The position numbers and the translations under genes were made by a program. The notes below the pieces were generated by a model that saw only the letters and a program-made list of their open reading frames with translations, had not been told where the DNA came from and did not search any database. Below, piece by piece: positions 10,562-53,180 of a stretch of 64,000 bases of DNA (position 1 is the first letter of the stretch; every line of letters begins with the position of its first letter). Source of the stretch: Squalus acanthias (lineage: Eukaryota); contig CM059432.1 in assembly GCA_030390025.1 (NCBI GenBank), forward strand, positions 6,448,001 through 6,512,000, given 5' to 3'.

Positions 10562-11035
10562 AAAAACAAAAAATGCTAGAAATACTCAGCATCTGCAGCA
10601 TCTGCGGCGAGAGAAACAGAGTTAACGTTTCAGGTCGATGACCTTTCATCAGAACTGGAAAAGCTTAGAAATGTAACCGGTTTTAAGCAAGTACAGAGGT
10701 AGGGAAAAGGGGGAGGGAGGAAAAAACGAAAAGGAAGGCCTGTGATGGGGTGGAATGCAGGAAAGATTAAATGACAAAGGGATTGATGGTGCAAGGTGAA
10801 AAAATGGGGGCAGAGGTTATGATCTGAAATTGTTGAACTCTGTGTTGAGTCCGGAAGATTGTAAAGTGCCTAATGGAAAGATGAGGTCCTGTTCCTCGTG
10901 CTTACGTTGAGCTTCATTGGAACAGTGTAGGAGGCCGAGGTCAGAGAGGGAGTGGTCCGGAGAATTAAAATGACGGGACCGGAAACTCGGGGTCACGCTT
11001 GTGGACTGAACAGAGGTGTTCCACAAAGTGGTCAC
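10562..11035 (-). mobile_element. Penelope-like element 3' end (GIY-YIG C-terminus plus terminal repeat)
   Basis: Minus ORF HFNSPDHSLSDLGLLHCSNEAQRKHEEQDLIFPLGTLQSSGLNTEFNNFRS followed by the hammerhead-bearing terminal repeat. Confidence 0.85.
10620..10656 (-). ncRNA. Minimal hammerhead ribozyme motif (Penelope type), GUU site
   Basis: Reverse complement agtt-CTGATGA-aaggtcatcgacct-GAA-ACGT-T-aact: intact core, stem I agtt/aact, stem II aggtc/gacct. Confidence 0.75.
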
Positions 11036-11211
11036 CTCCTACAATAATGTAGTAACGTTGGCCGTGGTCAGCTTTGCCGTACCCAGGATTGATCTGGATT
11101 TGTAGCTGATGCGAGCCGCTAGTTGGGAGATTTCTCTCTGAACGGGGAGGTGGGATAATCCAGTTCAAGTGTTTAGTTACAGCATTAAATTTCATTGCGT
11201 TTGTTGTTCAG

Positions 11212-11492
11212 GTGGTGAATCTGAAGCAGGGATACAAGGACAACATGCGATGCAATACCAGAGTGTGGACGGCCAACAGCAGCTCCAGCAGCAGGATGGC
11301 GAAGATGACCAAGGATGGGTCTCTTGGGCATGGTCCCTCGTTCCTGCACTGGTCAGTTATTCTGAAGAGGGAGATGAGAGCTACGAAGTCGATGAAAATG
11401 GCGTCAGAATAAATCGTCTGAGATCAACGCCTCCCAAGGATCCAGTGGTTTCTGTGGGATTCTACTGCACCAAAGCAACTGTCACTTTTAAG
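11212..11492 (+). CDS. VPS13B: VPS13B internal coding exon (approx. human exon 8), 281 bp, phase 1 in / phase 0 out
   Basis: Acceptor ttgttgttcAG at 11210-11211, donor AAG|GTTTGT at 11493. Encodes (G)GESEAGIQ...QGWVSWAWSLVPALVSY...KDPVVSVGFYCTKATVTFK, which matches VPS13B as I recall it and joins in frame to the next exon. Confidence 0.95.
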
Positions 11493-11773
11493 GTTTGTAA
11501 GAAACAGAACATGGGCTGACAACTATCTTACTCAGCTGTTCTTTGATAGTTTTGTACGCCAATATAGATAGGTGTGTTTGTTTTGGTCAGCATTGATTAG
11601 GATCTAAAAATATGTTGCTTCGGCAGCATGATGCTGCAGTATGTTGTACTCTAAGTAAACCTATCTCCACCTGTCCTAATGTCTCCTTCTTTGGCTCAGT
11701 ATCACTACTTTAAAGGTGTTATATACTTTGTTGTTGTTGCACATTCAGTTTCTTCACAACACTAACTTTCTCA

Positions 11774-11924
11774 AAATAAAAAAAAATTGCAGATGCTGAA
11801 ACTCTGAAAACAAAGAGAAAAAGCTGGAAATACTCAGCAGGTCAGGACAGTCCTGAAGAAACGTCTTAAGGCCTGAAACGCCGACTGACCTGCTGCGTAT
11901 TTCCATCTCTTTCTATTTTTGTTT
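11774..11924. mobile_element. Fold-back Penelope-derived mini-element with central degenerate hammerhead and 14-bp TSD
   Basis: Arms ggaaatactcagcaggtcag / ctgacctgctgcgtatttcc. Centre cagtc-CTGAAGA...GAAACGCC-gactg (11848-11887). Direct repeats cactaactttctca (11760-11773) and cacttactttctca (11925-11938). Confidence 0.75.
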
Positions 11925-13098
11925 CACTTACTTTCTCACCTAAGTTGTATCCTCTTGTGGAAAGATGCTGGCTGAAACCCAGATACTTTTGATTGGTTGG
12001 AGAGAAGAGCTGTCCTTGGATCCTCAGAGTGGTATTGACAGTAAGTCAGCAGACACCCTCTCAACTGCAGATGGTGTATAGCCCAGGAAACATAGGTCTT
12101 GGAGTTTGTTGTGGGATTTCTCTCTGCCCCAAAGCAGATGGAGACGAGCGTGTACTGGTTCCAAGCGATCTTTATTCAAGCACCTGCAGGGAGAGGCCCT
12201 CTCAGTCTGAGCTGAGACGGGAGTCTAATTTTTAGAGCAGTTGGCTTATATGCAATCTTGCATCTTGTTTCTTTCACATCTTCAGGACTTGGCCAATTAA
12301 TTGTCCAAGTCTAGTACACTTAATCACATCTCCACAAAACACATCTTGTTTATCTCATTTGCCTTGTTTCCACATCTGCCATTGTTCTACTCTTTAGCTC
12401 TTATCCAATTTCGTACACTTAACCACATCTTCGCAAATCACATTGGCGGCCCATTGTTCAATGTATGGCCTCCTTGCCTTCTTTCACTCCCCCAATGATC
12501 GTGTAATATGCTTTTTCCAACTATCTTTGTTCTGCCCGACTTCTCCTTTATTACATCAGCCAGCTAGTCAGTTAAGCCGCTAATCTAACTTTTAACCCCT
12601 TCAGAGTTCATGCATTTTTCAACCGCTAAAATTATGCGATGAACATTTATGTTTGTATTTACTGTAAGACCGTCTGCACCTTTTGAGACGAGCTCTTCCA
12701 AAATAGATTTCTCATCATTTTTCGTGCTGGAAAGCTAACTTTTTGTGCCACTGTGCTTCCTTCACTAATCAAATAGTTGCAGCTTGAGCAGAAGCTGTAG
12801 GGTGGAGAGGAAGAGAGTGGCGGGAAAGGAATGTATTGGCCAGTGTGCTCACTAAGCAATTTGCAGCCAACAATCAGTCAAAGGTCACTGTAAACCAGCA
12901 GCAGAATTATATGAATTTTTTGCACAATATTTATTTTTTGATGGAATGTAATCCAATCCTAAAAGTATTCGTTGTAAACATGAATGACGGTTTGTTGGAG
13001 ATAACGGGTAGACATATCTCTGGACAGGAATATTAATAATTTGTTGTCATCCTAAACAAGTGACCATGTGTTTATTATAAAAATGAAGATGGAAATAA

Positions 13099-13840
13099 AG
13101 GCGTAGAGTTTCCTCTTTGGGCGCAATCGGCGATTCTTGCGCAAATTGCGCCCGTTTTGAAAATTGTTTTATTTCCCCCCCCCGAGTTTCTGCTCAAACT
13201 CATTTGCATATCGGCGAATGCAAAATCTGCCAAGAAGCAGCCCAAACTGGCAGCGTTTCAAAATATAATTTAAAAAAAAAGTTTGCTTTACAATATTCCT
13301 TGATATATTTAACAGTGGTAACTTGGTAAAGTTTGATTAATACAGCTGAAAATGGTTTTATCATTAAAAACTAAGCATTTTAAATCAGTGTCAATCCACC
13401 ATCTGTGAGTAGCCCAATTTTAAATGACTTGAAAATGGCTTTTAAAAAATATACAGCACTATTTTCAAGTTGGATTGAGGTACAGTATAGTCAGTTCCTT
13501 CGTAAATTAAAAAAAAAAAAATTCATTCAAAACCTTTCAAGACATAGCTATTGGTGTCCTTGTGCGCAAAAGATCCAGCTTAAGTTTTGGAGCCTCCTCA
13601 AAGGCCCGCAAACGAGCACAATTAGTGGAAACGCCAGTGGTGATTAATTCACTCTGGGGGGCGTGGGCGGGGAATGCTTCTAGTGCGATGTTTTTAAAAC
13701 TAGCGCAAAAGATCGCCGAAACTCGAGTTACGCTGAACGCAATTCGCGCTTAAAATTTCGCGATCTTTTGTGCTTGTTGTGCCGAAATCGGGCGAATTGC
13801 AGCGAAAAAACCAGCGCATTCGAGAGGAAACTCCAGACCT
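13099..13840. mobile_element. Non-autonomous TIR element, family D
   Basis: TIRs AGGCGTAGAGTTTCCTCT / AGAGGAAACTCCAGACCT; a truncated relative lies at 38384-38790. Confidence 0.7.
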
Positions 13841-14042
13841 AAGTATATCCTCTGTTGAGATAATTAGAACATTACTATTGAAATACAATTTATGAAACTG
13901 TATGGTTAGCTTGGAATATCCATCGAAAGTATGAATTATACAAAAGATTAACTAATTCCCAAGAATGCTTCACGTGGTTCCTTTGACAGCTGTAGGTTTA
14001 TATTTTTGAAGCACGAATGCCTCTGTTTTAAAAAAAAAAACC

Positions 14043-14320
14043 GAAAGACTTGCATTTATATAGCACCTTTCATGATCTCCAGGTGTCTCGAAGCACTTTA
14101 CAGCCAATAAAGTGTAGTCAGCACTGTAATGTAGGAAATGCGGCAACCAAAATTGCACACAGCAAGCTGCCGTAAACAGCAATGAGATAAATGACCAGAT
14201 GATCTGTTTTTAGTGATGCGGGTTAAGGTTTAAATATTGGTCAGGACATCGGGGAGAACTCCCCTGCTCTTCAAAATAGTGCCCATGGGATCTTTTACAT
14301 CCACCCGAGAGGGCAGATGT
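14043..14320 (-). mobile_element. SacSINE1/DeuSINE-like SINE, 3' half
   Basis: Matches the tail and central domain of the full copies at 45412 and 47412. Confidence 0.8.
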
Positions 14321-14774
14321 GCAAAGATAGTATTCTATTTTTGCCACTCCTCCTCTTCTGAAGACATTGTCTCCTGTTGGGGTGCAGTTGCATGGGAGTT
14401 AGTTACCCTTGTACTTTGCAGAAGTGGTCAGTGTCAGTGTGAGAGCCTAGATAGTGAGTGTTGGCAGGGTATTTGACTTTGGTGACATCACTGCCAATGC
14501 CTATCTTGTTCTCATCCGATATATGTACACTTTCTGGAGGTGGGAGGGGGGGGGTGGCGGATAGTGGTCAGAAGCAGGAAGCCTGGATCCGCCCCCCCCC
14601 CCCGGCTGCCAACACCCCCCCCCTCCTCTCTCTAGCCCACATGCCTCTGCTGCTCAGCACTGGTTGAGAATTTCTGGCCTGAATGGCCCATTTGCACTTC
14701 TACCAACTGGTGGTTTTTCTTCATGGTAAAGAGTGAAAATAAGGACATTTGAAAATTTTCAGAATTATAGAGAA

Positions 14775-15062
14775 GCAGGATATTGGAAATCGGAAATAAA
14801 AACAGAAAATGCTGGAAATACTCAGCCGGTCAGGCAGCATCTGTGGAGAGAGAGAAACAGAGTTGACGTTTCAGGTCGATGACCCTTCATCAGAACTGAA
14901 AAAGTTAGAGATTTAACTGATTTTAAGCAAGTGCAGAGGCAAGGAAAGTGGGGTGGGGAGGATTGAACAAAAGGGAGGAAGGTCTGTGATGGGGTGGAAG
15001 GCAGGAGAGATTAAATGACAAAAGGTATGATAGTACAAAGCAAAAGTAGATAGTAATGGGAC
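14775..15062 (-). mobile_element. Penelope-like terminal repeat fragment
   Basis: Same sequence family as 10562-10800. Confidence 0.8.
14861..14897 (-). ncRNA. Minimal hammerhead ribozyme motif with canonical GUC site
   Basis: Reverse complement agtt-CTGATGA-agggtcatcgacct-GAA-ACGT-C-aact. Confidence 0.78.
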
Positions 15063-15574
15063 CAGAATTATAGACTCCAGTTTGATCCCGATTGAAGACG
15101 AGTTGTGGCCAAAGAACTGATCCTTTTATCATTTTGGAAATAAAAGGACTGCAATTGCAGTCCAAAAAATCATGCTGTACTATTTTTAGTGGATTAATAT
15201 CCTGGGTAGTTTTTTGCTGTATTTGTGGAGTCTGAAATGATTAATGTTTGGCCTCAGGTGAGCTATTTGTCTGGAATTAATGTGCAGTAATGCAGCAAAT
15301 ATTTCATGTTTTACATATGGTAGTGATAAATAAAAGTATTATTTTCATAATATAGTCCACCTGTAATGTCGAACCTTATACATACTTAATTTCTCTGCAT
15401 TGTGTACGTTCATGTGTGCGAGTGCATGCACATATCTCTAGTGAGTTTATGTTAATGAACTGTCTGTGAACACTGATGACAGCTTTGTAATTTAAATATT
15501 TCAACGGTTCTAACCTAGATTTCTTCAGCCACTATTTACAGAGTGAATCCTATTCGTAACCTGGGCTTTTTTTT

Positions 15575-16085
15575 ATGATCTCCATATTACAAAAAGGATA
15601 TAGAGACACAGGCTTTAAAGGATGATGCCAGAACGAAGAGGTTTATAACTATCAGGAAAGATTGAACAGGCTGGGGCTCTTTTCTCTAGAACAGGGAAGG
15701 CTGAGGGGTGACCGAATAGAGGTCTTTAAAATTATGAAGTGGTTTGATAGGGTAGACGTAGAGAAGAAGTTTCCACTTGTGGGGGAGTCCAAAACTAAAA
15801 TGTAAGATGGTCACTAATAAATCCAATAGGGAATTCAGAAGAAACTTCTTTATCCAGAGAGTGGTTAGAATGTGGAACTCACTACCACACAGAGCAGTTG
15901 AGGGGAATAGCATAGATGCGTTTAAGGGGTAGCTGGATAAGTACATGAAGGAGAAAGGAATAGAAGGTTACGCTGATAGGGTGAGATGAAGAAGGGTGGG
16001 AGGAGGCTCGTGTGGAGCATAAACACTGGCACAGACCAGTCGGGCTAAATGGCCTGTTTCTGTGCTGTAAATTCTATGTAATTTT
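15575..16085 (+). mobile_element. CR1 LINE 3' fragment
   Basis: RNFFIQRVVRMWNSLP-type coding remnant and CR1 tail GGCCTGTTTCTGTGCTGTAAATTCTATG. Confidence 0.88.
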
Positions 16086-16552
16086 ATGTCAATACCAATA
16101 TGAATAATTTCTGTGGAACTACTTGGTTCCATTTTTGGCATCTCTGAATACACAGAACTTTATAAATGAAAGCTGTTACCCTACTCACTTGCCCGCAAAA
16201 ATGTTTCCTTAGCAGCCAAAGCGGCAACCAATGAACTAAAAAATCACAGCAGGTCACCGAAGATGAGCGAGCAAATTCAATCAAAACAATTCATGTAATA
16301 AACATCACAGTGTTGCCAAGGAGCAGTGTGTAAATGAGAAAAGAGGAGGGGAGCCGAGCAATGTTCCCTCTAATTTTTTTTTGTACTGAACGGGCCACGA
16401 ACTCCTTTGAGTGTGACCTTTTTGTCCGTGGGCAAATTTTACTACTACTACAACAACAACGGCAGCAACCACTTAAATGCATGTATACAGTCATGCCATA
16501 TTGCCACCCCACTGTCTCATGATTTGAGACGATCAGACAAGGTTCGATACAA

Positions 16553-16725
16553 AAAGAAAATGCTGGAAATACTCAGCAGGTCAGGCAGCATCTGTGGAGA
16601 GAAACAGAGTTAACTTTTCAGGTCGATGACCCTTCGTCTCCACAGATGCTGCCTGACTTAGTATTTCCAGCACTTTTTGTTTTTATTTCAGATTTCCAGC
16701 ATCTGCAGTGTTTTGCTTTTGTATT
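16553..16725. mobile_element. Fold-back Penelope-derived mini-element with perfect 14-bp TSD
   Basis: Arms at about 16553-16600 and 16637-16685 are inverted; a truncated hammerhead lies in the loop; aaggttcgatacaa at 16539-16552 and 16726-16739. Confidence 0.8.
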
Positions 16726-16739
16726 AAGGTTCGATACAA

Positions 16740-17010
16740 GTTTAACATAACTTCTCTGCTTTTGAATTCCATTCCTCTAGAAATGAACCACAGTGCTTTA
16801 TTTGCACTTTTATGGCTTTTTAAACCTGCATTGCTACTTTTAATGATTTGTGAATCTATACCCCTAGATCCCTTTGCACCTCTACTCCATTTAGACTCTT
16901 ATTTTCCAAGGAGTAGGTAGCCTTCTTATTCATCTTACCAAAATGCACCACCTCACACTTATCTATATTGAAATTCATTTGTCATTTACATGCCCATTCT
17001 GCAAGTTTGT
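16740..17010 (-). mobile_element. Old CR1 LINE fragment
   Basis: Reverse complement resembles the CR1 ORF2 segment KCEVVHFG...FISRGMEFKSREVML. Confidence 0.75.
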
Positions 17011-17764
17011 TTACGGTAGAATTAATTAAAAGCTTTTGCAAACATGTACAAACTCGATTAAAAAAAAAAAAAAAATTACTTGTCAGAAATGACTGGGATA
17101 TAAAAGAACTGCATCATAATGATGCATTAACACTTCAGAAATGCCACTCAGTTACACGGTTGTGTATCGACAAACAATCCAAAGCCCAAGGCGAGCTGAA
17201 AGAGGCATATCTATTCGTGCAATTTGTATTAATTTTAAAGTTTTCAACGTATTAGCCCATCCCTCCTGTCACTATAGCAATGGCTGCACAAGCAGCAGGA
17301 GCAGCAGCTTTCCTATGGCGCTAATGTGCTGTACGTCCACATAAGTAATTAGAATATTAATCACAATGCAACCAGACAACCAGCAAATATAAAGTGCTGT
17401 AGCTCTGTAGTTCACAGTATTAAAAAGAATTGAACAAAAACAAGTATTTTCAACTTCAATCACTTCCATTAATAAACGTTGTCTCCTTGAACCAGCGCAC
17501 CCCCCATGTAACATGTCAGAAATGCAGCACTTATTCACAAGTGCAGAAAAACACATACACAATTTGCGTCACCGAATTAAAAACAAAAAGCAGGAAAAGG
17601 CTATGATTTAGCAGAAATAAACATTCATCTTTCTTCCTAGATAGAAGAACCAATCAGACTGACTTGGAAATGTTTACTTGGATGGTGACGTAAAGATGTT
17701 AATTTATGAATTTCGCTTCTAATTTGCTCTCAGACATTCTCTACAATATTAATCCCTGCTCTTA

Positions 17765-18082
17765 AGAGTAAGGAAGTCTTACTACGATTGTACAGGGCTT
17801 TGGTGAGACCACATCTCAAGTACTGTGCACAGTTTTGGCCTCCTTATCTGAGGAAGAACATACTTGCCTTGGAGGTGGTGCAACAAAGGTTCACTAGATT
17901 GATCCCTGGGATGAAAGGGTTGTCCTATGATGAGAGATTGTGTAGATTGGGCCTATACTCTCCGGAGTTTAGAAGAATGAGAGGTGATCTCATTTAACAT
18001 AAGATTCTGAGGGGGATTGACAGGGTAGATGCTGAGAGGTTGTTTTCCCTGGCTGGAGAGTCTAGAACTAGGGGGCATAGTA
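17765..18082 (+). mobile_element. CR1 LINE, first part (continues at 20480 after a nested insertion)
   Basis: ORF YRALVRPHLKYCAQFWPPY...RRMRGDLI; breaks at ESRTRGHS. Confidence 0.9.
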
Positions 18083-20479
18083 CATAAGAACATAAGAAAT
18101 AGGAGCAGGAGTAGGCCAATCGGCCCCTCGAGCCTGTTCCGCCATTCAATAAGATCATGGCTGATCTGATCCTAACCTCAAATCTAAAGAACACAAGAAG
18201 TAGGAGCAGGACCCGGCCACTCAGCCCCTGGGCCCGCTCCGCCACCCACAGGGCCTTGACCGATCCGAACTCCGCCTCATGTCCAATTTCCTGCCCGCTC
18301 CCCGTAACCCCTAATTCCCTTTACTTCTAGGAAACTGTCTATTTCTGTTTTAAATTTATTTAATGATGTAGCTTCCTGGGGCAGCAAATTCCACAGACCT
18401 ACTACCCTCTGAGTGAAGAAATTTCTCCTCATCTCAGTTTTGAAAGAGCAGCCCCTTATTCTAAGATTATGCCCCCTAGTTCTAGTTTCACCCATCCTTG
18501 GGAACATCCTTACCGCATCCACCCGATCAAGCCCCTTCACAATCTTATATGTTTCAATAAGATCGCCTCTCATTCTTCTGAACTCCAATGAGTAGAGTCC
18601 CAATCTACTCAACCTCTCCTCATATGTCCACCCCCTCATCCCCGAGATTAACCGAGTGAACCTTCTTTGTACTACCTCGAGAGCAAGTATGTCTTTTCTT
18701 AAGTATAGACACCAAAACTGTATGCAGTATTCCAGGTGCGGTCTTACCAATACCTTATATAACTGCAGCAATACCTCCCTGTTTTTATAATCTATCCCCC
18801 TAGCAATAAAAGCCAACATTCCGTTGGCCTTCTTGATCACCTGCTGCACCTGCATACTAACTTTTTGATTTTCTTGCACTAGGACCCCCAGATCCCTTTG
18901 TACTGCAGTACTTTCCAGTTTCTCGCCATTAAGATAATAACTTGCTCTCTGATTTTTCCTGCCAAAGTGCATAACCTCACATTTTCCAATATTGTATTGC
19001 ATCTGCCAAATCTCCGCCCACTCACCCAGCCTGTCTATATCCCCTTGTAGGTTTTTTATGTCGTCCTCACTTTCTACTTTCCCTCCCATCTTTGTATCAT
19101 CTGCAAACTTTGATATGTTACACTCGGTCCCCTCCTCCAAATCGTTAATATAGATTGTAAAGAGTTGGGGACCCAGCACCGACCCCTGCGGAACACCACT
19201 GGTTGCCAGTCCGAGAATTAACCATTTATCCCAACTCTCTGCTTCCTGTTAGATAACCAATCCTCCACCCATGCCAGAATATTACCCCAATCCAGTGATT
19301 TTTTATCTTGAGCAATAATCTTTTATGTGGCACCTTGTCGAATGCCTTCTGGAAGTCTAAATACACTACGTCCACTGGTTCCCCTTTATCCACCCTGTTA
19401 TGTCCTCAAAGAACTCAAGCAAATTTGTCAGACATGACTTCCCCTTCATAAAGCCATGCTGACTTTGTCCTATTAAATTATGTTTATCTAAATGTTCCGT
19501 TACTGTCTCCTTAATAATAGACTCCAAAATTTTACCCACCACAGATGTTAGGCTAACTGGTCTATAATTTCCAGCCTTCTGCCTACTACCCTTTTTTAAA
19601 TGAGGGTGTTACATTAGCAGTTTTCCAATCTGCCGGGACCTTTGCTGAGTCCAGGGAATTTTGGAAAATTATTACCAAAGCATCCACAATCCCTACTGCC
19701 ACTTCCCTCAAGACCCTAGGATGTAAGCCATCAGGTCAGGGGATTTATCCGCCTTGAGTCCCATTATTTTACTGAGTACCAATTCCTTAGTGATTTTAAT
19801 CGTATTTAGCTCCTCCCCCCCCCCAGAGCCCCCTGGTTGTCCAGTGTTGGGATATTCTTAGTGTCCTCTACCATAAAGATTGAAACAAAATATTTGTTCA
19901 GCATTTTTGCCATCTCCATGTTTCCCACCATTAATTTCCCAGTCTCATCCTCTAAGGGACCTACGTTTGCCTTAACCACCCTTTTTCTTTTTATATAACT
20001 AGAAACTCTTGCTATCTGTTTTTATATTTTTTGCTAATTTATTTTCATAATCTATTTTCCCTTTCTTAATCAATCCTTGAGTTACTTTTTGCTGTCTTTT
20101 GAAGACGTCCCAATCTTCTATCCTCCCACTAAGTTTGGCTACCTTATACGTCCTTGTTTTCAGTCGGATACTATCCTTAATTTCTTTACTTAGCCACGGA
20201 TGGCTGTCATTTCTTTTCCACCCTTTTTTCCTCAGTGGAATATATTTTTTTTGAAAGTTTTAAAATAACTCCTTAAATGAACACCACTGCTCATGTACCG
20301 TCTTACCCTTTAATCTATTTTCCCAGTCCACTTTAATCAATTCCGCTCTCATACCATCAGTCTCCTTTATTCAAGCTCAGTACGCTTGTTTGAGAACCAA
20401 CCTTCTCACCCTCTAATTGGATATGGAATTCAACCATGTTATGGTCACTCATTCCAAGGGGATCCTTAACTAGGACATT
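18083..20479 (-). mobile_element. CR1 LINE, about 2.4 kb, antisense, nested with 6-bp TSD ATAGTA
   Basis: 300-aa ORF 19179-18277 with LGPQLFTIYINDL...KFADDTK RT motifs; ATAGTA at 18077-18082 and 20480-20485; (CTTATGTT)n tail. Confidence 0.95.
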
Positions 20480-22440: not shown

Positions 22441-22579
22441 CTTGAAATCAGTCGAATTTCACTCGCTATGGCAGGCTTCTTTGCTAGACCTCGCCGGCTG
22501 GCAGACTGGCCATGCGTCCCTTTGTCCTTTTCTTGCATTGTTCCCAGCTGAAGGGAGAGCCGTCCTAATGACTTCTTTG

Positions 22580-22888
22580 CCGTTCAGTGATTCGCCAGTC
22601 TGCCTATAGTCCGTTCAGTAATTCGCCAGTCTGCCTATAGCCCGTTCAGTGATTCGCTGGTCTGCCTATAGCCCGTTCAGTGATTCGCCAGTCTGCCTAT
22701 AGTCCGTTCAGTGATTCGCCGGTCTGCCAAAAGCCCGTTCAGTGATTCGCTGGTCTGCCTATAGCCCGTTCAGTGATTCGCCAGTCTGCCTATAGCCCGT
22801 TCAGTGATTCGCCGGTCTGCCAAAAGCCCGTTCAGTGATTCGCCAGTCTGCCTATAGTCCGTTCAGTGATTCGCCAGTCTGCCTATAA
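22580..22888. repeat. Minisatellite, 10 x 31 bp (CGTTCAGTGATTCGCCAGTCTGCCTATAGYC)
   Basis: Unit starts at 22581, 22612, 22643, 22674, 22705, 22736, 22767, 22798, 22829 and 22860; no spacers. Confidence 0.97.
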
Positions 22889-23662
22889 GTTAAACCCTGC
22901 TGTCTATCCTTTGCCCTTTGGGGTACAGGCTTAAGGAAAAGATCCCCTGCTCCGCTCAAAACGAAGACGGGCCATTCTGGTTTAATGCACCTGGAATCAG
23001 ACAATTGATCCTCATTATCTGAGTTTGAGATAAACTGTGAGCCACAACATTCCACACACTGGTACATCTGGCTTTAATACGCATCAATAATACCTGACCC
23101 TACCAAATAAACCCTTATCTAGGAAGATTCAGCCGTTGTTATTTTCTTAAGCACATTTTGTTTTCAAAACACAACAATTAAACATAACTCATTCGCAGAT
23201 CTTTTCTGTGACGACCAAAAAAAAATTATTGAAAAATCCCGTAACATGTTGAGGCCAAAAACCTGGGGCTGGATTTTAAATGTTACCAGTATTCTGGTGC
23301 TGTCACTTAGTTACATCTTTGATGGATGGACCATAGAATCATACAGCACAGAAGAAGGCCATTCGGCCCATCCTGCCTGTGCCAGCTCTTTGTACGAGAT
23401 AACATTGGAAAAGACCATTGGTGCAGTATAGAAAACCGTTTAGAAATAATTTTCCAGTAATGCTGAACAAATAATTTGTTTTCAAAAAAAATGAAAAAAT
23501 GCAAGTTTTAATGTAGAAAGGTAGACTTTTTAAATAAATCTTGGAGAACAAGAGGTGAAAGTGGAGCAAAAAAAGCTCCCTAATCTAGCAACAGGAAGGA
23601 TAGAAAGTTGACTACAAAACAGAAATCCGAGTTCTGAAGAAAGGTCATCGACCTAAAACATT

Positions 23663-24336
23663 GGGCCGTATTTTCTGATCTGGAAAAAAATTACGCACTT
23701 AGCTGAGGGCTCCTGGGACGCGCACACTTCCGATCCTGGGCCTCTCGAACTCCAAGTGTGCAGGGCCTACGTATCCCAGGGGCGCATGCGGTTCGCAAGC
23801 GTCCCTGGGATCACGTGGGCCATGGGGAGCCAATCAAAGAAGGGAATCTTTCTTCATACACTTGACCGAAAGACCTGTCAAATATATGAATGGAGATCAC
23901 CCCAAAAACATAGTAAAACTTTAAATAAATTTAAAAAAAAAAATCACATTTTTAAAATGCCTTGAAATTACAATAAATTAAATATTTTAAACAAAACTTT
24001 AATTTTTTGAAAAAAAAGTAAAGCTTTTTACGGGGCTAAAAATAAACTTACCTTTTAAAAAAAAAAAGTATTTTTAAATGATAAATCAGTGAAATTTTTT
24101 TTGGTTTTTACCAGACGTAAGAATTGTTAGGGTTTTCTGCGGGCGGAGGGTCTCCAAAAAGCGGAACTCTTCACCCGCAGAGGCCCTTCTCCAGGGCAGG
24201 TGGAGGATCTGTCAAGAGCATTCTTGACCGATCGGAAATGCCGGTTTTCAGCGCATGCGCTTGGCATGCCTGAAACCGGCATTTCCAATGTCCTTACGGG
24301 TGGGTACATACCCGTAGGGATCGGAATATCTGGGCC
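23663..24336. mobile_element. Harbinger-like MITE, family B, ATT TSD, inserted into a Penelope hammerhead
   Basis: TIRs GGGCCGTATTTTCTGATC / GATCGGAATATCTGGGCC; ATT at 23660-23662 and 24337-24339; Penelope sequence on both sides (23629-23662 and 24337-24445). Confidence 0.8.
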
Positions 24337-25348
24337 ATTAATTCTGTTTCCCTCTCCACAGATGTTATCTGACCTGCTGAGTGTTACCAGCATTTTCTGG
24401 TTTTTTTCAGATTTACGGCATCTGCATTATATTGCTTTTGTATTTAAAATCAATCTTTGCTCAACAACTCAGAAAACACTTTATATTATGTGCGTCAATT
24501 TTTTTGAATAAAATAAAGCTGTATTAATATACTACCACGTAAATGAAGGCACTCTAATAAATGTGACTGAGTTGATTGAATCAGTTCAGAAAGCATTAGG
24601 TAATTTCCCCCTCCTTTTTTGTTTGCATGATGGTGCATGACTTGTTGGTGCAGTTTCAATGTCGGAGACTGAAATGCCAGGATGCAGGCATAACATAACG
24701 ATTAGAAATGGATGCTTCAAAATCTACTTGGCTGTTTGATAAAATGATCTTCGTGAAAACACAAAAAAAAAGTTTGATGTTGGCTGTTGTATTTGATATA
24801 CACGTAAGGTAGATAATTGAAGCGGTTACTTGTAGAAGTCAGGAAGTGCTGGGACATTCCGCACAGATCTTCTGTTCAGTTAAGAGGCAGAGAAACCTTT
24901 TTGGTGCCAAGCCACTTTTTAGGTTTTGTTCGCGGAGCTGTGGAGAGATTATCAAATGATAAGGCAGAAACTATTTAAATCGTTTTGTGGAACTTGCCAC
25001 TTAAGTCATCAAATTCTGTGAAAAGATTTAAGAATTTAATTCTGTACAGTAGAAGCCTCTGCCAATTCTTTCTTTTGCTTCCTGTTAATGCAGCACATCA
25101 ATTGTATATTGCCCTGTATGTAAATGGTCAAACATTCAAATTGCCAGTGTAAAGGTGACACATCTACCTTGCTAAATGCAGTGTGTAGTAATGTATTATA
25201 TGCAATGTGTTAAAAGTACATTTTTTTAATGCACTACTGAAGACAAAAAATGGAGTACTATTTTTGTCATTTCAGCAGTCCAAATAGTGTGTGTTTATAA
25301 AAAAAAAGTCAAAAGTATACAGAACACTACTATATCCATAGTAAATCG

Positions 25349-34353: not shown

Positions 34354-34925
34354 CACCTCCGTTCAGTCCGCAAGCGTGACCCCGAGCTTCCGGTCGCCTG
34401 TCACTTTAATTCTCCCCTCCACTCCCACTCTGATCTCTCCGTCCTCGGCCTCTTACATTGTTCCAACGAAGCTCAATGTAAGCTCGAGGAACAGCACCTC
34501 GTCTTTTGATTAGGCACTTTACAGCCTTCTGGACTCAACATTGAGTTCAACAATTTCAGACTATAAATTGGCCCCTGTAGTGTTTTTTTTTCTCTCTCGT
34601 TTCCTCACGATAGCTGTTAATGTTGCTGCCATCGTCATCCACACATCATCTAGAGCCATCTTTTGTTACTTAATTTGTCCCATTACCTTTTGCCTTTTGC
34701 CTTAAACTATCATCCCTTTTGTCATTCAATCTCTCCTGCCTTCCATCCCATCACAAACCTTCCCTTTGTTCTTTCCTCCCCTCCTCCCTGCCCCTGCTTA
34801 AAGATCTTTCCTCTCTAACCTTTTCCAGTTCTGACGAAGGGTTCGACCCGAAACGTTGACTATGTTTCTCCTCTCGTCGATGCTGCCTGACCTGCTGAGT
34901 GTTTCCAGCACTTTCTGTTATTTTT
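34354..34925 (+). mobile_element. Penelope-like element 3' end (GIY-YIG C-terminus with a premature stop, plus terminal repeat)
   Basis: Translates as HLRSVRKRDPELPVACHFNSPLHSHSDLSVLGLLHCSNEAQCKLEEQHLVF*LGTLQPSGLNIEFNNFRL*. Confidence 0.85.
34827..34861 (+). ncRNA. Minimal hammerhead ribozyme motif, sense to VPS13B
   Basis: agtt-CTGACGA-agggttcgaccc-GAA-ACGT-T-gact; stem I has one G-U pair, stem II gggt/accc. Confidence 0.72.
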
Positions 34926-36934: not shown

Positions 36935-37993
36935 TCGCCATTCAGTTGGATCACGGCTGATCTGTATCAGACAGCTGGTCATACGAGGAAAAAAAAAATG
37001 GTCAGTTGTAAGTGGCTTACATTGTGTTTTAAAGACACATGGCTCTTACTTAGAAAATATACTCACATTTTCTGATAAAAACAAAAACTGTGACATAACA
37101 GATTTAAACAATTCGAAAGAAGGTCAGCCCAAGACTTTTACAGAGCTAGACTGCAAAGCTAATTTATTAGTATGGAAACGAAGAGTAGGCTTTGCTCATT
37201 ATAACTTTTTATATCTACTACACACTGCGTATATAATGCATTTACTGAGGATGGAGGGGGAGTTACTGGTACATGTGCGATTTATACTCTTCTATGAAAC
37301 GCAGAATACATCCCAGCAATATTATTCCTGAACGCATATCATAGACTCATACAGCACAGAAGGAGGCCATTCGGCCCATTGCGCCTGTGCACTTTCCTCC
37401 CCTAAGTTTGCACCATTTCACCTGCAGGTTACCTTAGGGTGTTGTAATATGTTAATCTTTGGATTCATGAGAGCTCCAGGGAATTCTGTATCCTTGGCCA
37501 ATCTTTATTAAGATTTCCGCTTGTACACAGTGGGACTGAAGAGCCACTACTATTACAGTAGTAATTATACTACTGAGGTGCCAGAAGTACCTTTATTACT
37601 TTAGAATAATACCGTAACATGCATTTAAAAAAAAACATCAAAAATATATATTTTTTTAAATTTGCTTCTGCTCAGCCTAACACACTCTTTTTCCTCTATT
37701 GTGTCTACAATTTCTAGTTCATAGAATAGAGGGTCATAGAATCTTATAGCACAGAAAGAGGCCATTTGACCTGCCATGTCTTTGAAAGAGCTATCCAATT
37801 AACCCCACTCCCCTGCTCTTTCCCCATAGCCCTGCACACTTTTACTTTTTAAGTATTTATCCAATTCCTTTTTGAAAGTTACTATTGACAGCCTCAGCTG
37901 ATTTTTTTTTTTCCCCCCCCCCTCTTTTCCCTAATTCGGGCTAATTCCAGCCCATACTGCAATCAGCCAACTTCGCACAGACCAGGAGTTGAA

Positions 37994-38103
37994 ATAAAAA
38001 CCGAAAATGCTGGAAATACTAAGCAGGTCAGGCAGCATCTGTACGAGAGAGAGCGAGAGAGAGAGAGAAACAGAGTTAACGTTTCAGGTCGATGACCCTT
38101 CAT
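37994..38103 (-). mobile_element. Penelope-derived mini-insertion ending in the hammerhead core, 11-bp TSD
   Basis: caggagttgaa at 37983-37993 and 38104-38114; reverse complement contains CTGATGA-agggtcatcgacct-GAAACGTT-aact. Confidence 0.78.
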
Positions 38104-38383
38104 CAGGAGTTGAAGGTTGATTAAGACCAATCCCAGCGGAAAGTTACCTTGATTTCCACAATCTTTTTCTCATCATCTTCACAAACTTAACCATTTAGTC
38201 CCGGTGACATTTCAGGACATCGTTCAGCTGTTTCTGAAATATATCGATGAGGGAGAAGTTCAGTATAGAACATTCCGGCCCAACCCAACCCAATCAGGCA
38301 AAGAGATCCATAGGATTATAAAACAATTTTTGTGCTCAGAAGTTCAAGTGCTGGGGATTGGAACGATCTAATTTGGACACGGT

Positions 38384-38790: not shown

Positions 38791-38811
38791 TAAAGTATTA
38801 CCAAGTATTTC

Positions 38812-39568: not shown

Positions 39569-39791
39569 AAAGCAAAATACTGCAGATGTTGGAAATCTGA
39601 AATGATAACAAGAAATGCTGGAAACACGCAGCAGGTCCGGCAGCATCTGTGGAGAGAGGGTTAACATGTTGGGTTCGATGACCTCCCGTCAGAATTGGGC
39701 GCACGGTCATCTACCTGAAACGTTAACCCTACTTTCCTCTCTCCGCAGATGCTGCCCGACCTGCTGAGTGCTTCAGCAATTTCTGTTTTAA
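39569..39791. mobile_element. Fold-back Penelope-derived mini-element with two opposed hammerhead remnants, about 15-bp TSD
   Basis: Inverted arms gcagcaggtccggcagcatctgtggagagagg / cctctctccgcagatgctgcccgacctgctgag. Flanks tgatgcatctggcac (39554-39568) and tgacgcatctgccac (39792-39806). Confidence 0.75.
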
Positions 39792-40174
39792 TGACGCATC
39801 TGCCACGTGAATATGCGAGGTACCACTGCAGATGCGGAGGCAGGAAATTTGGTATCTTGAATTTTTCTGGGAAGACCACAAAATGCACAATAAACCTCTT
39901 TTATTTTAAAAGTTAACATAGCAGGGAGCTTGACATATACACCAAATGTTCATTTTTTTTATTGCAGTGTACATTGCTTTCACTGCACAGCATTATACCT
40001 GCAGTTCTGATTATTTATATCTGATGTGTCCAAATATCTGGATTTTATGGTAAATCGTTAAATACCCTATCCAGTCACCCTAAAATGAATCCAGACTGAA
40101 CGCTGAAGTTTCAGTTCGAGAATGACTTAAGAATTGAAAACATACGACATTTTTTCCTTTTTAAATAAGCATTC

Positions 40175-46532: not shown

Positions 46533-46696
46533 CTCCGTTCCCTGTAATTTTTTTTGGCCCTGTGCGGCCCCTTTAAGGGGCTGTGCGGGCCAATCAAAGT
46601 ACCGCGCATGCGCGGTTTTTACATTGAAATGCCGACAAGCCCACTGTGCGGGTTCCCTGGAGCAGTGCGCCGCCACACACCTTACAGGGAACACTG
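46533..46696. mobile_element. hAT-like MITE with degenerate 8-bp TSD
   Basis: Ends GTTCCCTGTAA / TTACAGGGAAC; flanks gtccatcg / gtccactg. Confidence 0.7.
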
Positions 46697-46802
46697 GTCC
46701 ACTGTGAATTGGGCACGAGAGCCTGTGCAATTGATTTTGCCACCTGCATTCGCCAGTAATCAAGCTTCCTGCTCCCAGTGGGAACATCAGACGATGTGTT
46801 TA

Positions 46803-47195
46803 ACATACGAGCAATGACGGACAGGAAAAGACCCTCTGGCCCATCCAGTCTGTCTCACACAGTTGCAATTCCGAGTGCAATCGCAATATATAGACTCCGC
46901 ACCTCACCCGAAACCATGTGATCTGCTGGAAGAGGCGAGAAACCAGATTGAAAAACAACCTCAGGCCAATTTGGGGAAACCAAATTCTGGGAAATTCCTC
47001 TCCTTCCTCCTTAGGCAATCGAAACTAGTCCAGGAGATCACTCTGGCCCCGATAATGCTATGCAGTACCTAGCTCTTGCATGAGGTGATCTCCGCCCCCC
47101 CAAGCCAGAAACAGGTCCAGCTCTCTCGAAGGAATTCAGCGAATCGGCGTGCACCCCACTTGACGGCAGCCCGTTCCAGACCAGGAGTCCACTGT
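46803..47195 (-). mobile_element. CR1 3' end of a different subfamily (long 3' UTR)
   Basis: Minus frame LLVWNGLPSSGVHADSLNSFER and tail GGATGGGCCAGAGGGTCTTTTCCTGTCCGTC. Confidence 0.65.
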
Positions 47196-47411
47196 TCCCT
47201 TTTAGGGATGTAAACAAAGCAGCTGCACGAAGATAATCTGATATTAAATAAATATTTTCTTTGCTAGATTCTGCTAGCAGACAAAAGACTATCAGACCTT
47301 TCCACGTTAACAAGTTTAAGATATTTGGATTCCCGAGACTTCATGCTTTCATATGTGCAAATTGCAGGGTTTTCAAAAACACCCTGTTAACATTCAACGT
47401 GAGCTTTTAAA

Positions 47412-47880
47412 AAGAAAGAAAGACTTACATTTCTATAGCGCCTTTTACGACCACAGGATGCCTCAAAGCGCTTTATAGCCAATGAAGTACTTTTGGAGTA
47501 TAGTCACTGTTGTAATGTGGAAAATGCGGCAGCCAATTTGCACACAGCAAGCTCCCACAAACAGCAATGTGATAATGACCAGATAATCTGTTTTAGTGAT
47601 GTTGATTGAGGGATAAATATTGGTCAGGACACCGGGGATAACTCCCCTGCTCTTCTTCGAAATAGTGCCATGGGATCTTTTACATCCACCTGGGAGAGCA
47701 GATGTGGCCTCAGTTTAACGTCTCATCTGAAAGACGGCACCTCCGACAGTACAGCGCTCCCTCAGCACAGCACTGGAGCATCAGCCTAGATTTACGTGCT
47801 CAAGTCCCTGGTGTGGGACTTGAACCCACAACCTTCTGACTCAGAGGCGAGTGTGCTGCCCACTGAACCACAGCTGACAC
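47412..47880 (-). mobile_element. SacSINE1/DeuSINE-like SINE, full length
   Basis: Colinear with 45412-45859; A box variant TGGTTCAGTGG and B box GGTTCAAGTCC. Confidence 0.9.
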
Positions 47881-48851
47881 TATAATTAAATAGAAATTGT
47901 ACAGAAATTTGTCTCAATTTATTTACCAGTATTCGAATATATCTGTATGCATGTTCTTGGAAAATTATTAGAAGCATTGCTTCAAATCCTTCACTTTTTC
48001 TCTGTTGCGGGGTATGGGGAAGAGGGGAAGAAAGAGTGCTGTGTTACATTGAGATGTCTTGCAGTTAGTGTGGGTGCATATTCGGTTGCCTTAGCTGCAT
48101 TTGATTTTAAAAATACATGATTCATCCACCGCCCACCATTCACAGGGTTTGAAATATGGAGAGAGCTGATTTTGGTCCATTTGTTTGTTTTGAGGAACAG
48201 CAGTAAGGTAATACTGAGATCATATACTCCAAGAAGGTTATGTCAATATGAACTGAGGTGATAATAGTTTCCTGTTTGAAAGTTTGTTTAGCTAGATAGT
48301 CATCTCTTGTAAATTATTTTTATCTTTTTAAGGGCCTTGCAGACTTCCCAAGGTTAATTTTTTCAGAGTGCTAATAGGTTTGAGTATGATAAAAATAGGA
48401 ATAATCAATTCGAGATAACTGTTTCTGTTTCAATTATCCTCGCTACCAGGCCTGTTACTAACAGTTCAATTTTGTTTACATATGAAGCTGGAATGAAACT
48501 GCTACAGTGCACTCTGGCCCAAGGAAGAAACATGTGAGCAGGACTCTTTTAAAATCTTCATTGCAACAGCTTCACTGTTTGATGCTCGATTCTAGGCCTG
48601 AAGATCCATGTACACTTTTAAAGGGGAGGACTTCTGTCGACCGCTTTGCCAGTCCAGTAACATGTCCCAAACTGGGCCATGTGCATATGCACGGGTGGAC
48701 AGCATTCATTGGGGCTTAACATTTCTGGGACCTTTGAGGTCCACAACTGAACCCATCTCAGCTGACGCGAGATCTGTAGGTCCGGACAGGGTGCACTGGG
48801 CAGAATTTGCCAGAGTAGCCCAGGAGTGACCCCAAACTGCTGCTGTGATTC

Positions 48852-49050
48852 CACAGAACTTTACAGCACAGAAACAGACCATTCGACCCAACAGGTCTAT
48901 GCCGGTGTTTATGCTTCACACGAGCCTCCTCGCACCGTACTTCATCTCAGCCTATCAACGTACCCTTCTATTCCTTTCTCCCTCATGTACTTATCCAGCT
49001 TCCCCTTAAATGCATCTATGCTATTAGCCTCAACCACTCCCTGTGGTAGC
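48852..49050 (-). mobile_element. CR1 3' fragment
   Basis: SLPQGVVEANSIDAFKGKLDKYMREKG plus tail. Confidence 0.85.
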
Positions 49051-49949
49051 GATGTTCTGGTGCGATGGAAGATGTGCCTCCTCTCTTGGACTGGGATTTT
49101 TGGTGTTTCTGGGCTCCCCTCCAAATTGTGCTCTCCCTGCTGTGATAGTGACGCAATGTATTTCCTCTCTCTTAAGCCCCTTGGAACTTCAGGTCCACTA
49201 GGTTTAGAGGTAGGATTGCTGACTTCTGTATAAAATCTTTCGAATGAAATGACTTCCACTTTATTTTTTAAAATAAATTATTGAGAACATTATTGATTAT
49301 AATCACTGAGAACATGAATAATAATCACTTACGTTTGTATTAAATCCAGTTTAAAATGGCTGAAATATGGTGTCCCATGTTGTGAGCTCCTAATCTAGCA
49401 GATCTGTTAATGGAGTACTGTTAGGAGTGACGTTTTCAGTTAAGTGTCATGCTATCGCACTCTAGTTTTAGTCTATGGGCCAATGGGGAGGTACCTTGAG
49501 CCAATAATTTAGTTTTTTTATGGTGTAGCAGGGGAGGCTGGGATAACCCTCCTTCCAAGTATTCACTGTCACTGACTCAGATCAGAAGCCGTCAATAATT
49601 TATTGAGGGAGAGCCGAGTGGGCGATGGCAAGGAAGGCAGCCAGATTCTATACCCACTGCTGCTGGGTGATGTTTAACTGCTGGCTGTAAACATTGTCAC
49701 TCAGGCATTATATGGTGAGGAGGTAGGGGTTGGGAGAAGAGGGACTGAAGGCAGGTGAGAATTTCCATTGCAAAATAGATAGAAAGTCGGGGAGAGGGGC
49801 AGCCAATCTGTGTTTTCCTTGTGCACCTCCTGATTATTTGGTAACCAGCAGTAGCAGGGAGGCGTTGACTTTCCCTCTCGGTTTGGAAAAGGTTGCATGC
49901 TGTCTGTCACCTGAAAGAGACCAGCGAAATGAAACGTGAAATGTTTAAA

Positions 49950-50328
49950 AAAAAACTTGCATTTCTATAGCACCTTTCACAACCTCAGGACGTCCCAAAG
50001 CGCTTTACAGCCAATGAAGTACTTTTTGAAGTGCAGTCACTGTTGTAATGTAGGAAACACGGCAGCCAATATGTGCACAGCAAGCTCCCACAAACAGCAA
50101 TGTGATAACAACCAGACAATCTGTTTTTGTGATGTTCGTTGAGGGATAAATATTGGCCAGGACACTGGGGAGAACTTCCCTGTTTTTCTACGAAATAGTG
50201 CCATGGGTTCTTTTACATCCACCTGAGAGAGCAGTGGGGGCCCGGTTTAACGTCTCATCTGAAAGACGGCACCTCTGACACTGCAGCACTCCCTCGGCAC
50301 TGCACTGGAGTGTCAGCCTAGATTTTTG
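49950..50328 (-). mobile_element. SacSINE1/DeuSINE-like SINE lacking the tRNA head
   Basis: Colinear with the body and tail of the full copies. Confidence 0.85.
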
Positions 50329-51014
50329 TTAAATCCAAATTAAGCTTGAAAAATATTTATTAATAGTTTTGAAAGTATAAATAATGCAGAAACACGACTG
50401 ATCAAATGTATTTAGCCATGTATTTTTTGCATTTTATTATCTGATGTCACAAGGACAGCTGATGCCTGCTGTTCAAAGTAAACTGAAGGGCTTGCCAGAA
50501 ATTTTTGAGATGTAGAACATAAAGGCTACAGTTGCTCTGCAGTAAAAACTTTTGGCGTGCTGTCAGTTTTTGCACTCCGCTGGGAAGAAAGATATTAGCA
50601 ACAAACGAGTGAAGAATGGCTGATGTACTTTTGTTTTCAGAGGAGAAGAGAAACCCTGTGCACACACAAGGTTGTTAATGTAATATTACCTGCCGCTTAA
50701 ATCGACAGATGGCACCAATTAAATGCGAACGTGTGGAGATTGCAGTTGTGAGGTGAATTCGGAACAACCCTTTTAAATTAAAAATACAAATGCAGCCAGT
50801 AGTGCCAAGTGAAAAATCATTCGAGAAGGGTGGGAAGAGGCTCGTGTGGAGCGTAAACACCGGCGTGGACCTGTTGGGCCGAATGGCCTGTTTCTGTGCT
50901 GGAAATACTTTGTAATACTTTGTAATTGAAGTGTCAGTGTGACTCAGTGGGAGCCTCTATGAATCATGGGTTCAAGCCTCATGTCACGGTTGATTCTTCA
51001 GCGCAGCACTGAGT

Positions 51015-52674
51015 CAGTCATGCCAACCCTACCATCTCATAAATCATGAGACGAACTCTTAAAAATCATGAGTTTGGTATAGAAATCATGAGTTGCCATT
51101 TTTTTCAAACACAAACCAATATAGATTGACAGTTCGTTTATGAACCTCATCAGAGGCTTTATTTAATCTCTAACAGGTCACCGCTCTTTACAAAAACTAT
51201 ATATTGCTGCATCTGAAAATGCTTTTCAAAAAACTTTTGGAAAAAAACCTACCCTTTATCACCACCAATTCACCTGGTGCCCAACTCGACCACCATGCAA
51301 TGCAGTCGCTGCCGCTGCCAACCAAAGGGAAGTTTTGGGGGGGGAACAAATTCAAAAACCACCTTCCCGTGGAGACAGGAGGCACGACCAGTGTTGGCAG
51401 CTCGCCCCAAGTATGCACGCGGCCCGAATACCGATTTCTATCGATCCTTGGGTCTCGGGCTTCTGAGGCTCCCTTCCCATGGTATAAAAAAAATTCAGGG
51501 ACCCCACCCTGCAACACGATGTATTTTTTCTGTGTAAAAATTAGTTATAAAATTAAGCATTTATATTCATATTTTTATTTTACTTAATGTGAAAACTTGC
51601 TGGTGCTGAGCAACACTTCTCAATTCCAATGCTGGAAACACTCAGCAGGTCAGGTAGCATCTGTGGAGCGAGGAACAGATTTAACGTTTCGGGTCGATGA
51701 GCTTTCATCAGAACTGGTCATCGACCTGAAATGTTAACTCTGTTTTTCTCTCTCCACCTGCTGAGTGTTTTCCAACATTTTCTGTTTTTAACTTCACGTT
51801 TCCAGCATCCGCTGTATGTTGTTTGCTTGTACGTGGGATCGTAAAAGCACAATAATCCCTCCACTCCCCCTCCCCAAGAAAGGTTACACAATGGAAATTT
51901 ACGGATAGAAATCAAAAAAGCAACATCTGGATCGTGGAAGGGTGATAAAGTTATAAAATGATGAGACTAAGAGACATGTGAATCTCATGCATTCGGAGTT
52001 GGTTTAAATATGTGGCTTACTGTGGACGCCACTGCTGATTAAACACCGCCTCATGTACTGAGAAGGGCTGCAATTCGCCTCACTCTTTGATGATAAACCC
52101 GACACCCACCATTGCCCCGAATCCTTCTAACCTTTCAGTTCCTGCTGCGAGCGTGGCCCAATTGCCTGCAGTTCAAAGCGCCAGATACCGGGGCACCTAG
52201 GATCACGGCGTCCTCCCGTCTCAAACTTGAGCTTAGCGCCGAATCATTTCGCTTAAGCCCTGCCGAGGCCCCGCATCTCACTTGCCTTACCTGCTCCTTC
52301 AAGGGCCGCTAACATGCCACCACACGGTGCGCACAGGCCGAGAAAGCGGGCAAACATCAGCGGCGCTGCTGCGTTTGCGCGGCTGGGTCGAGGAGATGGC
52401 GGCCGAAAGAAGGGAGGGGGGGAAAAAAATCAGATGAACAGTTGGATTTTACCAGCGGCGGCGCCAGAGGTGGAGGAGAAATTGCTGTTTGGATGGTGAA
52501 AGTGGCAGTGTGCAGGTATAAAGACAGTGTATTTTTGGTTGTTTTTGGCGGACCTCTGAAATCGGAAACAAAATCATGACTTTTCTGAGTTGAATTGCGA
52601 GATCGCGAGTTGGGGTATATTTTCATTAAAAAATTGCATGTCTCACGATTAAATCAAGAGAGTTGGCAACTCTG
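51015..52674. mobile_element. hAT-like TIR element inserted into a + strand SINE (50931-51014 and 52675-52736); carries nested repeats
   Basis: Ends CAGTCATGCCAACCC / GAGTTGGCAACTCTG; CTGAGT at 51009-51014 and 52675-52680; repeated subterminal AATCATGAG. Confidence 0.65.
51627..51830. mobile_element. Fold-back Penelope-derived element with a minus-strand hammerhead (51679-51715) abutting a partial plus-strand one
   Basis: Reverse complement agtt-CTGATGA-aagctcatcgaccc-GAAACGTT-aaat, followed directly by ggtcatcgacctgaaatgttaac; inverted arms. Confidence 0.75.
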
Positions 52675-52941
52675 CTGAGTGTTGGAGGTGAGATGTTAAA
52701 CTGACGCCTCCGTCTGTTCGGGTGGATGTAAAAGAGTATCTACTATACTATTAAAAACATTAACCATAAGTCCTTTTCTGTCCCTCTGATTTGCTCACTT
52801 AATCCACCACATTACCTTGTGGCTAGCTCATGCAAATCACATGATTCGTGCCTTATTTTTCTTCCAGCAATTTGACTGGTTCATGGAAACCATGTGGTCC
52901 ACGCTAGTAGTGATCTCTTTAGTTTATAGGAACCATATACC

Positions 52942-53180
52942 CTGCCTTCCACCCTATCATAGACCTTCCCTTTTGATCTTTCCTCCCTGCCCCCCTTTCT
53001 CTGCCTCTGTACTTGCTTAAAACAGGTTACATCTTTACCATTTTCTAGTTCTGATGAAAGGTCATTGATCTGAAACGTTAACTCTCTTTCTCTCCACAGA
53101 TGCTGCCTGACCTGCTGAGTATTTTTGGTGTTTTCTGTTTTTATTTCAGACTTCCAGCATCCAGAGTATTTTGCTTTTGC
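52942..53180 (+). mobile_element. Penelope-like terminal repeat fragment
   Basis: Reverse-complement match to 14775-15010. Confidence 0.8.
53047..53083 (+). ncRNA. Minimal hammerhead ribozyme motif, sense to VPS13B
   Basis: agtt-CTGATGA-aaggtcattgatct-GAA-ACGT-T-aact; stem II retained with a G-U pair. Confidence 0.72.

Follow-up and report, generated by a model that had tools for sequence, protein, structure and literature searches.

The 64-kb stretch of the Squalus acanthias (dogfish) genome analysed here, referred to as the window, lies inside a VPS13-family gene and carries ten sites with the motif of a minimal hammerhead ribozyme of the Penelope type. A first-pass annotation, made from the letters alone, had placed the sites in such a gene, and this was confirmed: VPS13_N exons flank the window at 6.34-6.42 Mb and 6.93 Mb of contig C8, another lies within it (Table 1), and the gene is on the plus strand. 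The gene is presumed to be the 'B' paralogue, VPS13B, and a PDB search for the paralogue gave no match. Altogether, the ten sites are very probably separate 5'-truncated insertions of a Penelope-like element (PLE), likely of Neptune type, each with a minimal hammerhead that likely matters only in tandem master elements and is likely inert in introns.

Positions in the motif are counted from core residue C3 as position 0, with helix I formed by -4 to -1 and +29 to +32 and cleavage after +28. All ten sites of the annotation were found at their given position and strand. A scan for the core pattern CTGA.GA-(11-18)-GAAACGT gave six matches in the window; in 200 dinucleotide-matched random sequences the mean was 0.005 and the maximum 1. 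An Rfam scan of the window returned 16 weak matches, none of them a hammerhead, which is expected because the motif is a form without helix III. Of the ten sites, the core is intact at six (10620, 14861, 34827, 38074, 51679 and 53047), and core and both helices are kept at four (10620, 14861, 34827 and 53047), because the 5' strand of helix I is gone at 38074 and both helices are mismatched at 51679. What had been listed as a separate disrupted site at 23630 is one copy with 24336-24444, split by an element of about 670 bp. Head-to-head inverted pairs make up the sites at 11848, 16608, 39660 and 51679. Target duplications are present at four window sites.

Since the host gene is on the plus strand, complete motifs in its pre-mRNA are limited to 34827 and 53047, which are 18 kb apart. 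The host-gene region examined covers 464 kb, made up of the window and the adjoining 400 kb. Strand bias was absent there, at low power, with 7 core-intact motifs in sense and 8 in antisense and with 19 termini against 25, and same-strand neighbours among the 15 core-intact motifs are at least 4.2 kb apart. There is no special tie between the motif copies and the host gene.

Table 1. Hammerhead motifs, the insertions that hold them and the host-gene exon in the window
Feature	Position	Strand	Remarks
Complete minimal hammerhead	10620..10656	-	GUU triplet; A-U closes helix II; antisense to host gene
Element holding the 10620 motif	about 10560-11036	-	takes in end of endonuclease coding region
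Inverted pair, head-to-head	11765..11938	both	9-bp target duplication (11765, 11930)
Degenerate hammerhead, old AGTC/GACT subfamily	11849-11886	+	U16.1 lost
Complete minimal hammerhead	14861..14897	-	GUC triplet; G-U closes helix II; antisense to host gene
Element holding the 14861 motif	about 14772-15062	-	12-bp target duplication (14760, 15063)
Inverted pair	16539..16739	both	14-bp target duplication (16539, 16726); minus arm begins at +2, core incomplete
Single copy in two parts (23626-23662 and 24336-24444)	23626..24444	+	G12 and ACGT mutated
Non-coding element of about 670 bp interrupting the 23626..24444 copy	23663-24334		GGCC ends, TT duplication
Complete minimal hammerhead	34827..34861	+	sense to host gene; G10.1-C11.1; U-G in helix I
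Element holding the 34827 motif	about 34354-34925	+	
Short insertion	37983..38114	-	11-bp target duplication (37983, 38104); 5' junction at core start; core intact, helix I 5' strand absent
Inverted pair	39571..39799	both	cores of both arms degenerate
Inverted pair	51628..51821	both	minus arm 51679-51715: core intact, helices mismatched
Complete minimal hammerhead	53047..53083	+	sense to host gene
Element holding the 53047 motif	about 52941-53175	+	long tail
Open frame with exon of VPS13-family host gene	56359..56667	+	profile positions 500-563, E 7e-4

The parent element and its copies in the genome

An exact 33-base version of the motif was matched 7,060 times in the 3.71 Gb of genome searched and not once in the control. 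Around these matches, the end of a frame for reverse transcriptase (RT) and GIY-YIG endonuclease (EN) lies directly upstream in the same sense. The element's protein was also searched for genome-wide (92,118 candidates, 101 of them scored), and many of the scored loci share identical scores, a sign that the family is very young. In all 11 loci that were fetched for long frames, intact frames of 1002-1004 aa are bounded by the motif, and the intact units stand in tandem, head to tail, with a period of 3,199-3,204 bp and the motif in every repeat. About 280 nt past the stop of the 1004-aa frame the motif follows in sense; within this frame Pfam places RVT_1 at 527-654 (E 2.6e-5) and GIY-YIG at 906-942 (E 6.6e-4). 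This ties the motif to intact tandem RT and GIY-YIG elements, and its assignment to the Penelope type was right. The window sites are 3' ends of this family, made up of pseudo-long terminal repeat and tail.

The linker that joins RT to EN, read from the translated frame, is C-x4-C-xx-C. A CX2-5CxxC linker marks Neptune and also Nematis elements (PMC8557442; here and below, statements on cited papers refer to the parts of them that were available). The Penelope-like element is likely of Neptune type. The 3' ends of its copies fall in two classes, at about +95 and at +127 to +135, matching the optional tail and the two RT start sites of PMC11167929; such optional tails of PLEs measure 30-40 bp. 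Solo copies carry target duplications of 6-15 bp, and an inverted partner was flagged in 29 of 141 tail-matched copies.

Several loci show the element in other arrangements. L051, L052 and L053 (C4 15.72 Mb, C7 118.06 Mb and C3 178.31 Mb) are very young, nearly identical arrays in which two to three or more full units stand in tandem, and the family may still be active. Two coding copies stand in long head-to-head inverted arrangements at L007 with L008 (C1 5.81 Mb), L054, L055 and L061, a large-scale counterpart of the window's short inverted pairs. L017, L030 and L150 have older, more diverged terminal repeats with other helix II sequences, which suggests additional Penelope-like families. 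At C1 6.99-7.14 Mb (L269-L274) a segmental duplication repeats the same truncated element six times.

Genome-wide, 63,060 sites match the core pattern, compared with 1,089 in reversed sequence, which served as the control for these counts, or about 62,000 over control and one core-intact motif per 59 kb. For comparison, 89 randomly placed stretches of 10 kb (890 kb) hold 13 matches. Element ends found by profile number 55 in this random set, 15 in the window, 29 in the next 400 kb and 0 in reversed sequence, so that ends are about four times as dense in the window as in random sequence; extrapolated to the genome, they come to about 230,000. The window copies are 3-17% diverged from a reference copy. 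The first-pass annotation had proposed a very large load at roughly one copy per 6 kb. The load is indeed large, but one per 6 kb would imply about 600,000 copies, and the density of core-intact motifs is ten times lower. To speak of a ribozyme load also overstates function, since the copies are solitary, their core is not spared in decay and they show no strand bias in the gene.

Separately, non-coding elements of 670-780 bp with GGCC ends and 2-bp target duplications were seen to interrupt Penelope copies. Three cases in the host-gene region are inserted at the TT beside the hammerhead cleavage site (23663-24334 of the window, and C8 about 6.81 Mb and 6.89 Mb). At locus L233 such an element lies at CT, a few bases past the cleavage-site TT, and L304 has the same 3' junction. 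This is probably a target preference of an abundant DNA-transposon derivative.

Sequence constraint and the 5' ends of copies

Constraint was read from 102 long copies, 77 of them picked by tail alone and 25 by a profile that includes the core. The core is kept in 80 copies and the core with both helices in 68, and the pairing probability of helix II is 0.97-0.99. The variation is consistent with the structure: there are A-U/G-U and U-A/C-G subfamily changes, a variable loop II and a bulge after A9. Subfamily columns occur at N7, 10.1, loop II and the flanks, and none falls in the ten non-CpG core columns; H17 varies between U and C only, as a subfamily state. Helix II is closed by A-U in 58 of the long copies and by G-U in 39, whereas G10.1-C11.1 is rare (1 of 102, and 661 motifs of common helix length genome-wide). 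G-U closure is also seen in published PLE rows (supplement of PMC4209133). The stem I covariation that had been noticed at 11848 proved real, and 11848 belongs to an old subfamily with a compensated helix I, AGTC/GACT. This subfamily has G at N7, its CTGAGGA core being present in 20 of 53 matches counted by eye. N7 had been described as freely T, C or A; C and T are indeed subfamily states, but the A of 11848 and 23630 looks like a point mutation.

Within the copies, private mutations strike core and non-core columns at an even rate (7 across the 10 core columns, 26 across the 35 others), recurrent variants lie outside the core (4 core vs 54 non-core), and the catalytic G8 decays at CpG as other CpG sites do (4, 3 and 3 of 102). 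In the 77 tail-chosen copies, 10 core mutations were found where 14.5 were expected (P 0.15). Our reading of these patterns is that selection would act on the masters while inserted copies would decay neutrally. A first core-versus-flank test (1.1% vs 2.7%, P 0.008) was rejected as a sign of copy-level selection because it mixes subfamily variants with the profile-ascertained set. Mere CpG decay does not explain N7 (T7 in 24 vs A8 in 4 of 102), and protein-coding constraint on the motif is unlikely, since subfamily differences at N7, in loop II and at H17 give another in-frame amino acid.

The 5' junctions of inserted copies were mapped in all 141 exact tail matches in C1:1-9.49 Mb, from which 8 with identical 3' flanks were removed; junction positions are blurred by microhomology of 1-5 nt. 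Per 100 nt at risk, the junctions number 0.20 from +44 to +30, 0.78 at +29/+28 (2 copies), 0.25 from +27 to +12, 1.62 from +11 to -1, 4.55 from -2 to -4, 0.85 from -5 to -17, and 0.10-0.26 farther upstream. This is a 22-fold enrichment over background at -4 to -2 and an 8-fold enrichment at +11 to -1, with no excess at the cleavage site (2 of 133 copies, P 0.10). Genome-wide junction patterns, which required three mismatches ahead of the junction, matched 857 times at -3, 92 times at +21 and 235 times at +29. A pile-up at the cleavage site was nevertheless rejected, given the 2 of 133 and because the 235 matches at +29 are, by eye, mostly deletions and inversion microhomologies. About a fifth of these +29 matches join an inverted arm ending at -4 to a sense arm via helix I sequence, as if the cDNA had folded back.

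Short non-inverted copies have abutting target duplications of 6-14 nt in 13 of 25 cases, compared with 0.47 in shuffled pairs, and because the duplications abut the junctions these copies are whole insertions. For the same reason splicing into the CAG just ahead of helix I was dismissed as the source of the -4 to -2 junctions in these copies, the flanks moreover being contiguous in one target repeat in 9 of 25. Replication was partial. Selection by identity and length retained 40 of 55 random ends and 40 of 44 host-gene ends, and in each set 13 have their 5' end in the interval from -17 to +11 and hardly any in that from -18 to -36; the sharp peak at -4 to -2 did not stand out there, and the rate from +44 to +12 was higher, about 1 per 100 nt. 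No GT-AG joint, transcript start or transcript end was seen in the transcript-like material, which consists of contigs only, whose RNA status is a guess and whose depth follows copy number.

Cleavage-site junctions are thus rare and helix I junctions common, and uncleaved RNA is therefore likely to be the copying template. The ribozyme's 5' edge is likely where copying ends. Going further, the hammerhead 5' edge may be a built-in stop of Penelope-like retrotransposition, which would start at the tail, run on uncleaved RNA and end at helix I, and would mass-produce hammerhead-plus-tail inserts of 100-135 nt along with fold-back pairs. We put this forward tentatively, at somewhat less than even chances. 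If true, the junctions are a genome-scale footprint of cleaved RNA rarely serving as template. The sequence CCAGTTC at the helix I edge also fits the initiator consensus.

Weighing the explanations

Altogether, the data suggest the following course for truncated insertions of a Penelope-like element. Transcription of tandem masters would yield tandem RNA, and two hammerheads within it could form helix III by pairing via ACGU, probably helped by the element's protein; cleavage by the motif is a prediction from its sequence. RT would begin at the tail on uncleaved RNA and copy through the motif, often halting at the hammerhead 5' edge to leave the short inserts. The endpoint at helix I could reflect an RNA that starts there or release of the cDNA by the hairpin and an upstream U-tract, and the data fit both. 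Selection on masters would keep the core.

Several results weigh against this account. The RVT_1 and GIY-YIG scores are both under the curated Pfam cut-offs. In a pooled base-matched test, core mutations numbered 11 vs 26 expected, a deficit owed mostly to the 25 profile-found copies with 1 vs 11.7 expected, the profile there including the core; there may be a weak copy-level sparing of the core. In all six variants folded, the prediction puts a rival hairpin 3-5 kcal/mol lower than the hammerhead fold, and this model questions activity even in masters. ViennaRNA dimers gave -9 to -10 kcal/mol for the strand-swapped form vs -19 to -24 kcal/mol for an alternative duplex, a comparison that is weak since tertiary contacts are omitted.

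In one rival reading the motif no longer cleaves even in masters and persists, its ancestral core retained, as a structured element for promoter function, translation or RT binding. The predicted winner is an inactive hairpin, helix II is closed by A-U or G-U in 97 of 102 long copies with G10.1-C11.1 as scarce as described above, inserted copies come from uncleaved RNA, and Naiad elements spread without hammerheads (PMC8557442). But every catalytic position is fixed across subfamilies, including the old one with its compensatory change in helix I, and H17 is restricted to U and C. G-U closure is shared with the published PLE rows, and the PLE motif of the anole cleaves once protein is added (PMC11167929). 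We regard loss of cleavage as unlikely. Less likely by far is that the solo copies are an active ribozyme load, in which sense copies pair via ACGU, in trans or within long pre-mRNAs, cut host introns and affect splicing or RNA turnover. The tens of thousands of core-intact motifs over control, the 68 long copies with core and both helices, the two complete sense copies in the host gene and the transcript-like contigs that cover the motif, if they are RNA, all speak for it. Sense copies are, however, neither depleted nor in excess in the gene (again at low power), and the spacing of same-strand partners, like the distance between the two sense copies of the window, is large. Published minimal hammerheads show no activity as monomers and only weak activity as dimers (PMC4209133), a published PLE hammerhead needs the element's protein (PMC11167929), and private decay does not spare the core. 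This leaves an active load as quite improbable.

Only a shade better are the chances that the short copies are a separate non-autonomous family, either like a short interspersed nuclear element (SINE) or a retrozyme, with its own master starting at helix I. Such a family would explain the common 5' end at -4 to -2 seen in many inserts, along with their target duplications. The short copies bear, by eye, the states of several different subfamilies, however, and both tail lengths occur among them (15 and 9 of 25 non-inverted); no short tandem arrays are found in the window or the next 400 kb. Truncated insertion of the Penelope-like element itself remains the best explanation of the ten sites.

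Surroundings and known systems

The rest of the window holds numerous reverse-transcriptase fragments of long interspersed nuclear elements (LINEs), at 1337-2194 (+), 18277-19248 (-), 57067-57723, 59039-59578 and 60089-61224, which are presumably of CR1 and L2 type; 18280-19248 has an RVT_1 match. A 227-aa frame at 53307-53990 (+) has no Pfam match and resembles the C-terminal part of an RTE-type retroelement protein. A minisatellite lies at 22580-22887 (31-bp unit, 9.9 copies, 91% matches).

Minimal hammerheads (min-HHRs) in the pseudo-long terminal repeats (pseudo-LTRs) of metazoan PLEs were described by Cervera and De la Pena in 2014 (PMC4209133). The dogfish motif shares with them the type I core without helix III, the palindromic 15.2-16.2, a bulged base between 9 and 10.1 and a helix I of 4-5 bp, and its copies are likewise mostly solo and truncated, with inverted pairs and few full tandem elements. 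It differs in having a helix II of 5 bp closed mostly by A-U or G-U, and in number: about 62,000, where a stricter descriptor gave 4,000 for the coelacanth and 9,000 for Xenopus. The axolotl has 126,247 canonical hammerhead motifs (PMC7229834; bioRxiv 10.64898/2026.07.22.740005), so that the dogfish load is high and not a record in number. No cartilaginous fish is named in the available text portions or supplement file 2 of PMC4209133. A literature search, to which Repbase and some supplements were out of reach, likewise found no paper on this dogfish family or on the helix I junction peak.

Non-LTR retrozymes (PMC7229834; bioRxiv 10.64898/2026.07.22.740005) are also PLE-related, with type I hammerheads at very high copy number. 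They are short tandem repeats that yield circular RNAs, whereas the dogfish copies are dispersed, solitary or inverted, and the spacing of same-strand motifs in the host-gene region shows no short tandem hammerhead repeats. Domesticated hammerheads of amniotes, such as that of RECK (PMC6155905), are intronic and type I too, with a proposed retroelement origin, but they are single, canonical and conserved across species, while the dogfish copies are young multicopy repeats.

A similar overlap of the hammerhead with the reading frame's start, a tail bounded by two 3' ends and the use of uncleaved RNA as insertion template are known from PAc, the green anole's Poseidon PLE (Frangieh et al. 2024, PMC11167929). 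The dogfish element differs in its Neptune-type linker and in that the evidence is genomic rather than biochemical, and the available parts of that paper describe no accumulation of 5' junctions at helix I. The motif and its host element are thus of a known kind and the catch itself is ordinary, and the helix I junction peak is the one testable mechanistic lead. A very young family with tens of thousands of insertions is good material on what PLE hammerheads do, and its junction map fits the in vitro finding that RNA is inserted unprocessed, and suggests either a start site or an RT stop.

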